Of a DNA stretch of 30,347 bases, positions 1 to 4,250 are shown in pieces (the stretch's first letter is position 1; the number at the start of each line of letters is the position of its first letter). The DNA lies in UHGV virus genome UHGV-1790783; one strand, written 5' to 3'. The DNA is from a virus. The position numbers were made by a program, and so were the translations under genes. The notes under the pieces were generated by a model. The model had not been told where the DNA came from. It did no database searches and saw only the letters and a list, made by a program, of their open reading frames with translations.

Positions 1-284
1 GATGTTAATCCTTATGTAATATTGATAACTTAATTTGTTATTTATTTATCGTTAGCGCGTTCGCTTTCGATGTAATTAATTATCGACATACAGAAAATAA
101 AATCAAGAGTTTTTTTGCTCGGGAATGAAAAATTTTATTCAATAAAAATCAAAGTCTTAGAAATAAAATGCATTTTCTCGAAGGTGTTGCCTAAATAAAT
201 TCCCTATTCGGTCAATCACCCTTATATATTTAAACTGGAATCGTGGTGGGTGAAATAAATATAACTGGAAGTGACACGTAAAAT

Positions 285-308
285 AATAACCGGACTTAGC
301 CGGTTATT
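285..308 (-). terminator. Putative intrinsic terminator ending the minus-strand operon
   Basis: Seen in sequence: perfect 9-bp inverted repeat AATAACCGG / CCGGTTATT with 6-nt loop; on the minus-strand transcript the stem is followed by AUUUUA. Lies about 15 nt downstream of the stop of the 321..629 gene. Confidence 0.55.
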
Positions 309-320
309 ACCCTTATAGAT

Positions 321-629
321 TTATTGAGCAGACTCGACAATTTTTCGGTTAGTGTCAAAGAGTGCATCGACGAAGTGTGCCGATGACTCGCTGGCATCAC
401 ACTCCAACATCTCCCTTTGGTCAGCCGAACGCCCCTTACAGTTTTGGACACTCTCTCCAATTGTCTTTCCCGCTTTGACAGCGGCTGCGAACTGGTACAT
501 GCAAATCGACACATTGTCCGATGACGAACAGACGTCGTTCATGAGTGACTGAATAACTGGTTTATAGTCCATAGCTGAGGCTGCCGTGGACGATGCGAGA
601 AGAATTGAGGATAGTAAAATCGCTTTCAT
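321..629 (-). CDS. Small secreted (periplasmic) protein with predicted Sec signal peptide, unknown function
   Basis: ORF track 102 aa. N-terminus MKAILLSSILLASSTAASA has a basic n-region, hydrophobic core and AxA cleavage motif; mature part has 4 Cys. No obvious SD; ATG sits 3 nt after the upstream gene's stop (possible coupling). Function inferred only from signal peptide. Confidence 0.5.
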   Translation of the reverse strand: MKAILLSSILLASSTAASAMDYKPVIQSLMNDVCSSSDNVSICMYQFAAAVKAGKTIGESVQNCKGRSADQREMLECDASESSAHFVDALFDTNRKIVESAQ

Positions 630-632
630 AAC

Positions 633-1196
633 TTAAAACGGTAAAATTCGTTCAACCCAATCGAACATGACGACCATCTTCCGACCATCGCCAACGCTGA
701 GTGTGACCTGACAAGCGTCAACGCCTGAAGACACACCTTCAAGTTCACGGCCATCCGCCATGTAGACCCTTATAGACTTCTGCATCTCATGAGCCTGGCG
801 ACAAATTTTGAAGAAATCACGGCGAGATGGCTGATTGTCCACATAGTCTGGGTGTACCGTTGTCCGACCCGTGAAGTCGTGCGCAATACCTTCTGTCACA
901 CCTGATTCAATCGTGCTGATTCTCTCAAGTGGGAGCCTTATACGATTTTCTTTGTCGAACGGGGCAGGGCAAAGGTCGACTTTGTTGCGCGACGACATGA
1001 GACCCTGAACGTACATGCAGAACACCTGACCATCTTCCATCGTGACCCTTACAGGAATGAGAGACTTACGCCAGAACATCAGCGCCTTCTCCACGTTGGT
1101 GTAATCGCGCGGCCAGACTTCTGCAGGAATCCCGTAGGTGATGTCAGTAATATTCGTCATATCGTCACAGTGTCGTTGGTAGGATATCGATGTCAC
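633..1196 (-). CDS. Hypothetical protein with internal duplication (two related halves each ending in an ERI motif)
   Basis: ORF track 187 aa. Half 1 VRVTMEDGQ...RIRLPLERI and half 2 IRVYMADGR...VMFDWVERI are visibly related. Start uncertain: the longest ORF overlaps the upstream lipoprotein gene by 32 nt; an in-frame ATG at 1160 would remove the overlap. No family recognised. Confidence 0.5.
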   Translation of the reverse strand: MTSISYQRHCDDMTNITDITYGIPAEVWPRDYTNVEKALMFWRKSLIPVRVTMEDGQVFCMYVQGLMSSRNKVDLCPAPFDKENRIRLPLERISTIESGVTEGIAHDFTGRTTVHPDYVDNQPSRRDFFKICRQAHEMQKSIRVYMADGRELEGVSSGVDACQVTLSVGDGRKMVVMFDWVERILPF

Positions 1197-1927: not shown

Positions 1928-3487
1928 TTACTCTCTATTTAAAACAGTGAAATCGAATGTGCTGCCAACCGGCAAGACCCCCTCGGCAAACCCAGGCGTC
2001 GTGTCGATAATGTGTTTCCGCTCATATGAATGCGACATGAGGTATTTGTTGCTCACGTCGATGAAGTCGGTAATAAAGCACACGTTAGCCTGATTCTTTT
2101 TGGCTCGAAGACCGCGGCCCACACGTTGACGCATCTCCACTTCGGCTTTGCCGCCACCACCCAGAATCACAGCGCCTACGCTTGGAACGTCGACACCAAC
2201 ATCCAGAATGGTTGAACCAATGAGAACATCTATCTTGCCTACCGCCAGACTATTAAGTTTTGCTTGTCGGGTAGTCTGGTTTGATTCTCCGTAGATGAAA
2301 TCGACCTTGAGGCCACTCTCTTTCATCATTTCCATCAAGATCTGACCATGACGCTTCAGACGAACCAATGTCATACAGTTCAGACCGTGACTTTTGTACA
2401 TTAACGCTTCGCGCACAATAGCCTCGTTGCGGCCCAGATTGTAAACGATGCCTAACTGATAGGCTTTCTGGTAAGCCGTACTCATTCCAACCCGAAAGTT
2501 CAGGTGTTTCGAAGCAAGTTCGGCCCTAATCCGCACCTCGTCTGGAGTGTACGCGATTTTATGATATAGAAAGTAGGGTTTCGCTAAAATACCTCGGTCG
2601 ATCAAATATTTCTCCGTTACTTTTATCTCGATGCGACCCGCAACGGCCATGAGACGCATATTTGCTTCAGTCGAGTCCTTCATGAACGGCGTTGCTGTCA
2701 GCGCCAGACGGTAGTCGGCATTGATGCACAACCGGGCGATGTCGTAGAAGTTAGAACCAGATGATTCGTGTGCCTCTTCCAGAATCAGCAGAGAAACGCT
2801 GGACAGGAAGCGTTTAACCAGTTCCCGGCGCTTCAGGTGGTACTGTTTTTTCTCCGGTGATGCGTCGCGCGGTGGCTCTTCGAGAAAACTGGCCAGGGTC
2901 TGCACCGTGGCAACGTTGATATGGCGCGAGACCTGGAACTCACCCGATCCAATCACCCCAACTCTCTGACCTTTCAGCCACGGCTCGCCATTCTCCGCGC
3001 GGTAGTCGATGGATTTCTGGAAGTTCTCTGCCATCTGGAACATCAGAACCGATCGCGTGGTTAAAAACAGCGTCATACGACCAATGCGAGCAGCAGCCTT
3101 ACACGCTACGTTCGATTTACCGCCACCCGTCGCAATCTGGGCAATCATCATCCCTTCGCGCACCAGTGTTTCCACTGTCTGATCCTGATACGCATAGTCC
3201 GGGTTATACGGGAATGGGTTAACTACCGGGTTCGGCTTGCCCAGCGCGGGGGCTTTTTCCTTGCGCACATGCACGCATTTGATGCCAGCTTTCAGAAGGT
3301 TGGCTGCAACTGGCTTCGCAAACCCAGCCGGGAACGCGTTTTTGCTCCAGTTGAACATCGTGCTGGTTCCTTTCCAGTCCCCAGCCTCCACTTCATAGCT
3401 CAACATCTCCTGAACGAGCCGCTTCACGTTGTCATCAGCGCCAGAAATCAGCGCATTGACTGCATTCGATACAATCCGAACTGTCAT
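1928..3487 (-). CDS. Superfamily-2 DNA/RNA helicase (DEAH-type, ResIII-like phage replication helicase)
   Basis: ORF track 519 aa. Motif I ATGGGKS, motif II LILEEAH, motif III LALTATP, C-terminal motif VI QRVGRGLR. Strong SD (AAGGAAAGAGG) upstream of the ATG at 3487. Confidence 0.9.
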   Translation of the reverse strand: MTVRIVSNAVNALISGADDNVKRLVQEMLSYEVEAGDWKGTSTMFNWSKNAFPAGFAKPVAANLLKAGIKCVHVRKEKAPALGKPNPVVNPFPYNPDYAYQDQTVETLVREGMMIAQIATGGGKSNVACKAAARIGRMTLFLTTRSVLMFQMAENFQKSIDYRAENGEPWLKGQRVGVIGSGEFQVSRHINVATVQTLASFLEEPPRDASPEKKQYHLKRRELVKRFLSSVSLLILEEAHESSGSNFYDIARLCINADYRLALTATPFMKDSTEANMRLMAVAGRIEIKVTEKYLIDRGILAKPYFLYHKIAYTPDEVRIRAELASKHLNFRVGMSTAYQKAYQLGIVYNLGRNEAIVREALMYKSHGLNCMTLVRLKRHGQILMEMMKESGLKVDFIYGESNQTTRQAKLNSLAVGKIDVLIGSTILDVGVDVPSVGAVILGGGGKAEVEMRQRVGRGLRAKKNQANVCFITDFIDVSNKYLMSHSYERKHIIDTTPGFAEGVLPVGSTFDFTVLNRE

Positions 3488-3569
3488 AAACCTCTTTCCT
3501 TCGTGCCTTTTGTATGGTAATTGGCTATTATAGTAAGTAAGTACTTATACAATAGATTGTATCAGAATT
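3488..3569. promoter_or_regulatory. Divergent intergenic control region between helicase (leftward) and ParB-like operon (rightward)
   Basis: 82-bp gap between divergently oriented genes. Contains TAGTAAGTAAGTACTTATAC (3531..3550) with the perfect 10-bp palindrome TAAGTACTTA, and a perfect TATAAT on the minus strand (plus 3527..3532) suitably placed for the helicase. -35 elements are weak. Confidence 0.5.
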
Positions 3570-4250
3570 ATGGATGTGAAAATTACGATTCTGCAGGTGG
3601 AAGTCGCGAACCTGCGTCCGAATCCCTGGAATACCAACTCCGTTGGGGCGCAAAACTTCGAAAAACTGAAAGGCTCTATCGAAAAATTGGGCTTTTTTAA
3701 GCCAATTCTGGCGCGGGAGTTGGACGGGGGCATTTTTGAGATCCTCGGTGGTGAACACCGCTGGCGTGCCGCGATGGAGCAGGGCATTTCAACGGTTCCC
3801 GTCATCTCCGTGGGCAAAATTAACGACCTGGTGGCCAAACAGATGTCCCTCGTCGACAACGAGCGCTACGGCGAAGACGATCAGGTCGCTTTGCAGCGCT
3901 TAATCGAAGAAATCCAGTCTGAAATCGACTACCGGTTGTCCGATATCGCCCCGTATGACGACGAAATGGCGGCAACACTCGCCAAAGCGTCCGTTATCGA
4001 TCTTGAAGCGCTGGAAGCGCTCTCCCGTGGCGATGACGAGCCGGTCGATGAGGACAAACGCGAGAAAACCGAGCGAGTCGGCGCTGAACACCAGACGATG
4101 CGCTTCAAGGTGACGTTTGATGCGTCAGATCGGGTCGCCGACACCATCAAAACCATCATCAAAGAGCAGGGAATCAATACCGGTAACGAAATGGAGAACG
4201 CCGGGGAAGCCCTGGTGTGGCTGGTCGACTACTACAAGGAGCGTATGTAA
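3570..4250 (+). CDS. ParB/sulfiredoxin-like nuclease-domain protein (paralogue 1)
   Basis: ORF track 226 aa. ParB N-terminal motif ILGGEHRWRAA preceded by LRPNPWN. Stop overlaps the next start (TAATG). Confidence 0.8.
   Translation: MDVKITILQVEVANLRPNPWNTNSVGAQNFEKLKGSIEKLGFFKPILARELDGGIFEILGGEHRWRAAMEQGISTVPVISVGKINDLVAKQMSLVDNERYGEDDQVALQRLIEEIQSEIDYRLSDIAPYDDEMAATLAKASVIDLEALEALSRGDDEPVDEDKREKTERVGAEHQTMRFKVTFDASDRVADTIKTIIKEQGINTGNEMENAGEALVWLVDYYKERM

Follow-up and report, generated by a model that had tools for sequence, protein, structure and literature searches.

A FljA-family putative translational repressor and an optional, probably exported protein at the end of the helicase operon of SSU5/pHCM2-type phage-plasmids

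What do the last two genes of a phage-plasmid's helicase operon encode, and do they belong to the core of the element or to its movable cargo? The question is raised by positions 321-1196 of the window (the whole stretch of DNA analysed, 30,347 nucleotides of the UHGV virus genome UHGV-1790783). The source of the window is a phage-plasmid of the SSU5/pHCM2 type, its first 4 kb matching pHCM2 at 97% and SSU5 at 94% identity. Two tightly packed open reading frames are called in this region, both on the minus strand, one at 321-629 (102 aa) and the other at 633-1196 (187 aa, starting at a GTG), and the initial annotation took them for a moron-like pair that could not be placed in any known family. 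The best explanation overall, to which we assign a probability of about 0.6, is that the pair comprises a FljA-family RNA-binding translational repressor and an optional Sec-exported helical periplasmic protein, coupled within the helicase operon.

The setting of the pair is largely as first described. Order, strand and packing of the open reading frames place it at the distal end of the helicase operon, where the larger gene is the fourth and has as neighbours the genes for the helicase, a 92-aa protein, a lipoprotein and the secreted 102-aa protein. The lipoprotein gene, which lies upstream of it, is itself variably present among relatives. The ribosome-binding sites had been called weak, and indeed neither start is preceded by a Shine-Dalgarno sequence; together with stop-to-start spacings of only 4 nt and 3 nt, this suggests translational coupling, and the 102-aa gene may be coupled in this way to the gene before it. 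In a Klebsiella plasmid, a promoter-like site of its own and a GAGG Shine-Dalgarno sequence precede the pair. The helicase operon is closed by a terminator-like hairpin at 280-313 (minus strand), which has a core stem of 10 bp and a 3' arm ending in U4 then A (-15.3 kcal/mol, z -2.64). When aligned with pMT1, SSU5 and an Enterobacter plasmid, this hairpin is nearly invariant and is kept with or without the 102-aa cassette, so the proposed downstream terminator stands as a conserved hairpin, although it was not among the calls of a simple terminator scan. No Rfam family reached its gathering threshold in the whole window.

The larger gene is shorter than its open reading frame and does have a known family. 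The ATG at 1160 is the start in every homologue and in the Pfam model, and the RefSeq CDS measures 528 bp, so that the product has 175 aa rather than the 187 aa given earlier and the gene spans 633-1160 (minus strand; stop codon TAA at 633-635). The in-frame extension up to the GTG (1161-1196, minus strand), which is the source of the 187-aa open reading frame, overlaps the end of the lipoprotein gene, has no Shine-Dalgarno sequence before the GTG and is probably untranslated. The 175-aa protein is a member of the FljA family: it matches PF03614 (Flag1_repress) along profile positions 1-170 of 170 with 320 bits against a 24-bit cutoff (E 4.3e-96), matches phrog_1444 (E 1e-106), and is 35% identical over 172 aa (E 1e-35) to the Salmonella protein P0098, named 'phase 1 flagellin gene repressor FljA [Salmonella enterica]' in the sources. 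The GenBank record of SSU5 labels the gene 'putative repressor of phase 1 flagellin'.

The FljA-like protein of the phage-plasmids and FljA of Salmonella enterica agree over their full length and in size (175 and 179 aa, respectively). The motifs DITYGxxAEVWPRDY, P(S/T)RRDFFxIC and FDWVERI are common to the phage-plasmid protein and the canonical-type FljA sequences from Atlantibacter, and Salmonella FljA has near-identical versions of them, its N-terminal, linker and C-terminal motifs being very similar to those of the phage-plasmid protein. There are also differences. The phage-plasmid proteins form a clade separate from canonical FljA, the sole link between the two lying at 35% identity; the protein studied here is acidic to neutral (pI 5.9), not basic like Salmonella FljA (pI 8.9), and is found in aflagellate hosts. 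In addition, its gene lies in the helicase operon and not behind a flagellin gene or an invertible promoter.

The AF2 model of the FljA-like protein (pLDDT 82.6, pTM 0.81) contains two units, each made of an alpha helix and five beta strands, and the protein is predicted to consist of two tandem Sm/Hfq-like beta-barrels after a conserved N-terminal motif rich in aromatic residues and arginine. This motif, DITYGxPAEVWPRDY, lies within the N-terminal 20 residues (1101-1160, minus strand), which are modelled with low confidence (pLDDT 43-67), are conserved in the phage-plasmid clade and in Atlantibacter FljA and in which T8, Y9, G10, A13, E14, W16, P17, R18, D19 and Y20 are invariant alignment columns. 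The first Sm-like unit, aa 21-86 (903-1100, minus strand), is modelled with a helix at 21-32 and strands at 36-41, 46-55, 60-64, 73-77 and 81-86. The second, Sm/Hfq-like unit, aa 111-175 (636-830, minus strand), is modelled with a helix at 114-125 and strands at 129-134, 139-148, 151-156, 160-165 and 169-174, and carries the conserved PSRRDFFxIC and FDWVERI. Each half thereby shows, in the model, the topology that defines the Sm fold, in which an N-terminal helix leads into a barrel of five bent strands. Salmonella FljA presumably adopts the same two-domain fold, because the alignment behind the AF2 model spans both clades.

That the protein is built from two related halves, each ending in ERI, had been proposed at the outset, and this view survives in the predicted structure rather than in plain self-alignment. 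A Smith-Waterman alignment of the two halves is not significant, as 10 of 500 shuffles score as well, whereas the model is duplicated, with ERI at the junction of strands 4 and 5 in both copies of the helix and five strands. Comparison of the N-half with the C-half by hhalign covers 17 columns (P 0.005), or 31 columns (E 6e-5) when more diverse alignments are used, and lends modest profile-level support to related halves.

By sequence, the protein falls outside the Sm/Hfq family as delimited by the Pfam Hfq/LSM profile and the Sm2 motif: the Pfam Hfq profile stays below threshold (12.7 bits versus a 27-bit cutoff, E 0.1), and the YKHAI of the Hfq Sm2 motif is not conserved, FDWVERI standing in its place. 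Among PDB sequences, the family profile of the C-half detects Hfq weakly (best E 0.0056), a phmmer search with the C-half gives Hfq-like matches only below threshold (E 0.7-0.9), and the profile of the N-half finds no meaningful match and no sequence link to Sm proteins. Hfq acts on mRNA leaders, as does FljA according to the literature and as the FljA-like protein may do. Unlike Hfq, the latter has two Sm units per chain instead of one, and it is probably a specific repressor, not a general chaperone.

The distribution of the FljA-like gene contradicts the idea that it is moron-like. The gene belongs to the core of SSU5/pHCM2/pMT1-type phage-plasmids, present in 831 plasmid records against 823 with the helicase, a ratio of about 1:1; among these records are 341 from Klebsiella and 62 from Y. 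pestis, and it is intact in Y. pestis pMT1. With dN/dS at 0.07-0.2, Klebsiella copies included, the gene is under purifying selection. Gene order, distribution and selection are thus established for the gene, as are FljA-like family membership and the fold prediction for its product. Klebsiella is normally without flagella. No flagellin gene lies beside the FljA-like gene, and the pHCM2 gene table holds none in the first 100 kb. Canonical-clade fljA follows directly on a flagellin gene in Atlantibacter and Franconibacter, whereas the phage-plasmid gene never does, and the fljBA-type arrangement, directly downstream of a second flagellin gene, is not found for it; in the conserved-pattern locus search, run with a narrower alignment, Salmonella fljA itself was missed owing to the stringency of the pattern.

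Most likely, the 175-aa protein is an RNA-binding translational repressor with a putative target, and we infer RNA binding, repression and targets by analogy with Salmonella FljA. The latter reportedly binds the fliC 5'UTR, and the FljA-related papers, as far as their titles indicate, treat the control of fliC as post-transcriptional. The phage-plasmid protein would likewise bind one particular mRNA at its 5' leader and thereby keep it from being translated. In flagellated hosts such as Salmonella and E. coli, the fliC leader would be the obvious candidate, and flagellin synthesis would then be turned off whenever the helicase operon is expressed. However, the intact gene in normally aflagellate Klebsiella argues against fliC as the sole or main target, and equal conservation in the Klebsiella plasmids together with the lack of a partner flagellin gene would require at least one further, non-flagellin target, probably encoded by the phage. 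A search of pHCM2 positions 1-100 kb and of the window for sequences like the fliC leader, using the E. coli leader from a genome and a Salmonella leader, gave a best score of 22.3 bits, which 96-98 of 100 shuffles matched or exceeded. Our literature searches returned no paper tying FljA to phage-plasmids, SSU5, pHCM2, pMT1 or an Sm/Hfq fold, and nothing, experimental or otherwise, that deals with the copy on phage-plasmids; searches pairing FljA with Hfq/Sm or RNA binding likewise gave nothing on a Hfq-like two-domain arrangement.

It is possible, though we think it considerably less probable, that the FljA-like protein is a purely phage-intrinsic post-transcriptional regulator of phage-plasmid mRNAs with no role in host flagellin synthesis. 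Several features fit this reading: the gene is a core gene in a 1:1 relation to the helicase, it lies where a replication-type operon ends, it is conserved under purifying selection across about 340 Klebsiella plasmids, and pMT1 has an intact copy; so do the absence of a partner flagellin gene, unlike the canonical clade, and a pI unlike that of FljA. T4 RegA, which represses translation and whose gene lies among those for replication, provides a functional analogy only. However, no candidate phage RNA target has come to light, and the most conserved motifs of the protein are those that it has in common with canonical FljA proteins, an indication that ligands are recognized in a similar way.

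A broader proposal, which we advance with a similar degree of doubt, concerns the family as a whole. FljA proteins may constitute an unrecognised class of sequence-specific RNA-binding proteins with a tandem Sm fold, whose largest clade would be a core post-transcriptional regulator of phage-plasmids and not a factor of flagellar phase variation. The targets would then be phage or non-flagellin host mRNAs, because the gene is maintained in aflagellate Klebsiella; a trimer may mimic the Hfq hexamer, and Salmonella fljA might be a domesticated or exchanged relative of the phage regulator.

We now turn to the second gene of the preferred reading, which encodes a precursor of 102 aa (321-629, minus strand) belonging to phrog_9536 (E 2e-47) and forms an accessory cassette. 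The Sec signal peptide and the four cysteines attributed to this product are both borne out by rule-based inspection. Its N-terminus reads MKAILLSSILLASSTAASA followed by MDYK, with the signal peptide at aa 1-19 (573-629, minus strand); n, h and c regions are recognizable by inspection and hydropathy, with K2, a hydrophobic core whose Kyte-Doolittle mean over 9-mers reaches 2.7, and A-S-A at -3/-1, after which cleavage is predicted, giving the tripartite build and the small residues at -3 and -1 of a Sec/SPase I substrate. This architecture is kept in divergent homologues, in some of which residue 20 is not Met, and the signal peptide, although it changes more quickly than the mature part, remains hydrophobic. 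The predicted mature protein of 83 aa (324-572, minus strand) is acidic (pI 4.7) and helical, the AF2 model placing helices at residues 19-34, 40-64, 69-74 and 77-101 with a mean pLDDT of 66. Its cysteines, at 34, 43, 64 and 77, are spaced C-x8-C-x20-C-x12-C and are invariant at three of the four positions in 11 homologue sequences, Cys77 being lost in two of the 11, one of them frame-disrupted; the 11 homologue clusters all lie on ~105-112 kb contigs or fragments. The product is therefore probably a Sec-exported, all-helical periplasmic protein with disulfides. As stated at the outset, it has no known family: beyond PHROG 9536, searches of Pfam (E up to 10), NCBIfam, PADLOC and PDB sequence profiles were all empty, a fold search likewise gave no match, and neither a profile nor a fold match links it to a PADLOC or Spackle/Imm-like defence protein.

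Unlike the FljA-like gene, the 102-aa gene is optional. By tblastn it is present in ~259 of ~830 related plasmids, about a third, and in alignment it is missing from SSU5, pMT1 and the Enterobacter plasmid as a clean indel. The exact block lost is 312 bp long, at 324-635 or equivalently 321-632, its placement being ambiguous by a 3-nt TAA repeat, and consists of the gene and a 3-nt spacer. In all loci where it is visible, the gene lies immediately 3' of the FljA-like gene. In Klebsiella plasmids, the same slot directly after the FljA-like gene is filled by a distant homologue, which we call type B (PHROG 27673 / PF26829 'ValRS_modifier'; ~151 plasmid records). This protein likewise has a signal peptide and has in common with the 102-aa protein the pattern C-x8-C-x20-C-x11/12-C, at 26% identity and a pairwise E of 5e-6; PHROGs 9536, 27673 and 21025 are linked by weak cross-matches. 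However, the 102-aa protein matches neither PF26829 nor phrog_1256, and the PF26829 match of type B is itself flagged weak, the 'ValRS_modifier' function being a family name only and, for exported proteins, putative.

These data bear on the initial view that the pair is moron-like cargo without a known family, the secreted protein acting in superinfection exclusion or host modulation, which we now consider unlikely. Presence in only some close relatives, as expected of a moron, is seen for the 102-aa gene, whose slot may also hold a divergent homologue or nothing, but not for the FljA-like gene, and the check for variability among related phages thus separates the two. The variable lipoprotein gene upstream is also in keeping with cargo, as is the fact that T4 Spackle (Sp) and similar small periplasmic helical disulfide proteins act in exclusion; Spackle resembles the 102-aa phage protein in being small, Sec-exported, helical and Cys-containing, a likeness of architecture only, to which no sequence or fold match of the 102-aa protein corresponds. 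On the other hand, the FljA-like gene is a core gene of a known family, and the cassette lacks the promoter, terminator and distinct base composition of its own that would mark a moron: only 3 nt separate the 102-aa gene from the stop codon before it, no promoter-like site precedes it, and it shares the operon hairpin. A compositional island was considered and rejected, the GC content of the cassette (0.48-0.49) being like that of its neighbours. Furthermore, the 102-aa protein has no PADLOC match and no sequence relative in the PDB. Our reading remains that it is most likely an accessory periplasmic protein, for which a putative inhibitor or exclusion role in the periplasm is the best guess.

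For the FljA-like protein, a DNA-binding transcriptional regulator repressing a promoter of host fliC or of the phage is improbable. The RefSeq labels 'transcriptional regulator' and 'transcriptional repressor' and the Pfam family name 'Repressor of phase-1 flagellin' would suggest such a role, but neither the AF2 model nor Pfam reveals a helix-turn-helix or other DNA-binding domain, and the titles of the FljA papers give the control as post-transcriptional. The WYL domain found in regulators, a module that senses ligands or ssDNA and does not bind operators, also counts against it. Finally, that the 102-aa open reading frame is a chance or decaying one, as might be suggested by the many plasmid records, pHCM2 included, whose incomplete gene tables list no CDS at the matching position, is essentially refuted by pN of 0.14-0.19 versus pS of 0.66-0.79 (dN/dS about 0.1), in addition to which the frame is intact across homologues 52-97% identical, three cysteines are invariant and the fourth nearly so, and there is a dedicated PHROG family and a distant homologue in the same slot.

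Phage-plasmids of the SSU5/pHCM2 type occur widely in clinical Klebsiella, E. coli, Salmonella Typhi and Enterobacter, and pMT1, the virulence plasmid of Y. pestis, has the region in common with them. If the FljA-like protein does no more than repress fliC, in line with its annotation, the finding is routine. A FljA-family regulator on such elements could alter host motility and flagellin display, and with them how the host is recognized by the immune system and how susceptible it is to flagellotropic phages; or it could instead act as a key switch in the phage-plasmid's own life cycle. Small and clearly bounded, the cassette for the secreted protein is a candidate for lysogenic conversion or exclusion, and the predicted two-domain, Hfq-like architecture offers a concrete structural hypothesis for how FljA may recognize mRNA leaders.

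The upstream gene of the pair at 321-1196 (minus strand) is a core regulator of a known family, and it already carries a label in public records. Its product matches the whole profile of Pfam PF03614, 'Repressor of phase-1 flagellin' (E 4.3e-96, 320 bits vs a 24-bit cutoff), as well as PHROG 1444, and shares 35% identity (E 1e-35) with a protein of 179 aa listed at NCBI as 'phase 1 flagellin gene repressor FljA [Salmonella enterica]'; the original GenBank record of phage SSU5 labels the gene 'putative repressor of phase 1 flagellin'. The initial annotation had been unable to place the protein in a known family and had given it 187 aa; both statements need correction. The frame read from GTG at 1196 is 12 codons too long, since the start shared by homologues, the Pfam model and RefSeq CDSs is the ATG at 1160, which leaves 175 aa (633-1160, minus strand). 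In the RefSeq record of SSU5 (3323-3850 of that locus, L001), the annotated product starts at an internal Met and is just 148 aa long, although all 175 codons of the frame are intact and 96.6% identical to the window protein.

Over its first 4 kb, the window shares 97% identity with numerous Salmonella and Citrobacter plasmids, pHCM2 of S. Typhi CT18 among them, and 94% with Salmonella phage SSU5, which identifies it as a piece of an SSU5/pHCM2-type phage-plasmid. According to the pHCM2 annotation, the remainder of the window codes for ParB-like proteins, terminase, capsid and tail genes. All genes of the locus lie on the minus strand, in the order SF2 helicase (1928-3487), 92-aa gene (1647-1925), lipoprotein gene (1165-1587; lipobox LLSAC, phrog_890), FljA-like gene and 102-aa gene (321-629), with successive gaps of 2, 59, 4 and 3 nt. 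A minus-strand hairpin follows at 280-313 (-15.3 kcal/mol, z -2.6), with U4 and then A at the end of the 3' arm; it hardly varies across pMT1, SSU5 and an Enterobacter plasmid, and a simple terminator scan left it unflagged. No Shine-Dalgarno sequence precedes either the FljA-like or the 102-aa gene and, given the gaps of 3-4 nt, translational coupling is the natural reading. These coordinates, gaps and hairpin bear out the layout described earlier, namely the end of a helicase operon with a hairpin downstream and weak ribosome-binding sites. The stretch at 1-320, between the hairpin and the next conserved gene (651 bp, just beyond the window), is intergenic, with 30% GC and a single promoter-like site (minus strand, 106-79). 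Among PADLOC models, those for PbeA and type IV restriction helicases match the helicase moderately (E 4e-22 at best), probably through generic SF2 helicase similarity; the gene is annotated as UvsW helicase in one phage record, Escherichia phage Cyrano.

By tblastn, the FljA-like gene is present in 831 plasmid records (822 at full length), against 823 with the helicase orthologue, from Klebsiella (341), Escherichia (229), Enterobacter (92), Y. pestis pMT1 (62) and Salmonella (60); the 12 phage records with a full-length copy are all SSU5-like elements. Pairwise dN/dS is 0.07-0.2 (0.15 between two Klebsiella copies); in comparisons with saturated synonymous sites, pN is about 0.17 vs pS about 0.77. 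Because it occurs almost one to one with the helicase and has a low dN/dS, the gene is a core gene under purifying selection and not cargo, and the moron-like status proposed for it does not hold. Among 1.84 billion proteins, the FljA family has 32 representatives at 50% identity, few of them full length. Six distant full-length members (P0114, P0116, P0119, P0120, P0122 and P0125; 164-174 aa, one from Xenorhabdus bovienii) all have the C-terminal (F/Y)D(W/A)V, and the N-terminal motif AEVWPRDY is missing in some. Sequences labelled as Gram-positive, from Gemella morbillorum (P0081) and a Bacillota MAG (L013), are 69-76% identical to the enterobacterial phage-plasmid type and most likely result from contamination or mis-binning. 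One copy from an E. coli chromosome (P0074, on a 5.2 Mb contig; 54% identical, with segments locally scrambled in the alignment) resembles a phage-plasmid-type gene in decay.

The FljA-like protein was originally described as two related halves each ending in ERI, and this is right in substance, although a plain self-alignment of the halves is not significant. Profile-profile comparison aligns them over 17 columns with close homologues (P 0.005) and over 31 columns with a more diverse set (E 6e-5), around a common core (I/V)RVxMxDG. In an AlphaFold2 model built on 18 homologues (pLDDT 82.6, pTM 0.81), a helix followed by five strands occurs twice, at aa 21-86 and aa 114-174. The C-terminal-half profile matches Aquifex Hfq over the whole Sm core (E 0.0056), with other Hfq and Lsm chains next, and Pfam Hfq gives a sub-threshold match at the same position (E 0.1); the N-terminal-half profile has no sequence-level link to Sm proteins. 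ERI lies at the strand-4/strand-5 junction in each unit, the position of the Sm2 motif in Hfq, where the C-terminal unit has a conserved FDWVERI. The homologue alignment adds two motifs: DITYGxPAEVWPRDY, conserved at the N-terminus, and PSRRDFFxIC, in the linker. The protein is thus predicted to consist of two tandem Sm-like barrels together with these two motifs. Our literature search found no paper describing FljA as Sm/Hfq-like.

What such a protein would bind is suggested by the family. FljA reportedly binds the fliC 5'UTR, in work of 2006 by Yamamoto and Kutsukake and by Aldridge et al. The Sm-like fold and the conserved motifs in common with FljA lead us to infer that the phage-plasmid protein would be a sequence-specific, mRNA-leader-binding translational repressor. 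The titles of the papers cited for FljA present its action on fliC as post-transcriptional. A role in DNA binding, implied by the RefSeq label 'transcriptional regulator', is unlikely, as neither Pfam nor the AlphaFold2 model shows a DNA-binding domain. The canonical gene on Atlantibacter and Franconibacter chromosomes directly follows a gene for a flagellin that has both Flagellin_N and Flagellin_C domains, whereas the phage-plasmid gene has no flagellin neighbour in any locus examined; its product also has a lower pI than Salmonella FljA (5.9 vs 8.9). Klebsiella is normally aflagellate, and that the gene is conserved there speaks against flagellin mRNA as the sole target, and perhaps against it as the main one. 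In Salmonella and E. coli, fliC may well be silenced upon expression of the operon; in Klebsiella, the repressor would have to act on another target, most economically a phage-plasmid transcript. A search of pHCM2 and the window found no fliC-leader-like sequence above shuffled controls.

The 102-aa gene, judged from its sequence, is real: it has 11 homologue clusters (52-97% identity), a dN/dS of about 0.1, and invariant Cys34, Cys43 and Cys64, with Cys77 lost in two of the 11, one of these frame-disrupted. The Sec signal peptide and four cysteines noted initially are upheld. By rule-based reading, the protein begins with a textbook signal peptide for SPase I (K2, hydrophobic core, ASA|M), a region that evolves faster and keeps its hydrophobicity. 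Cleavage would leave an acidic mature protein of 83 aa (pI 4.7) with the pattern C-x8-C-x20-C-x12-C, predicted to be all-helical (pLDDT 66). Some records begin the gene at internal Met20, without the signal peptide; homologues with Lys at residue 20 still have one, which rules out this shorter start. Many RefSeq plasmid records, including pHCM2 (NC_003385 68839-69472), show no CDS here, which may partly be an artefact of incomplete PLSDB tables.

Between the stop codon of the FljA-like gene and the hairpin, the window carries a block of exactly 312 bases that pMT1, SSU5 and an Enterobacter plasmid lack; it comprises the 102-aa gene and a spacer of 3 nt, with repeated TAA at the bounds. This type A gene (PHROG 9536) occurs in about 259 plasmid records; about 151, mostly Klebsiella, have in the same slot a type B gene of 99 aa, 26% identical, with the same signal peptide and Cys spacing, and roughly half have neither. 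Either type directly follows the FljA-like gene in the examined loci where the upstream gene is visible. The moron-like view is apt for the 102-aa gene as an accessory gene, but it has no promoter, terminator or compositional signature of its own. Its product is an orphan, optional and, by prediction, exported protein; one may reasonably guess at a periplasmic inhibitor or an exclusion factor, though no database match supports this. Type B matches PHROG 27673 and, weakly, phrog_1256 and PF26829 'ValRS_modifier'. Its clear signal peptide (L005 1197-1496, Klebsiella pCRE-234_3; also loci L020-L025) sits beside this weak match to the T4 Vs family, so that either the PF26829 and phrog_1256 match is spurious or the family name is unfit for these exported proteins.

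The lipoprotein gene, which also has a weak DUF2846 match, occupies a slot that is variable in its own right (loci L003-L007): Klebsiella plasmids carry the gene inverted, pMT1 and E. coli SP15 have a shortened version of about 260-270 bp, and in pKPS11 unrelated genes (phrog_2320, phrog_29155) take its place. In one Klebsiella lineage with the inverted gene, the FljA-like and type B genes have their own AT-rich leader of 155 nt (L005 2037-2191, minus strand), with a promoter-like site CTGTCA-17-GATAAT and a GAGG Shine-Dalgarno sequence, and look like an independent two-gene unit.

Overall, the initial annotation was largely right in what it observed and half wrong in how it interpreted it. 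Two points go beyond routine annotation, both as hypotheses. FljA-family proteins would be tandem Hfq-like domain proteins, which is a strong prediction, and there is a paradox in that phage-plasmids of hosts without flagella keep a 'flagellin repressor' among their core genes, with no partner flagellin.
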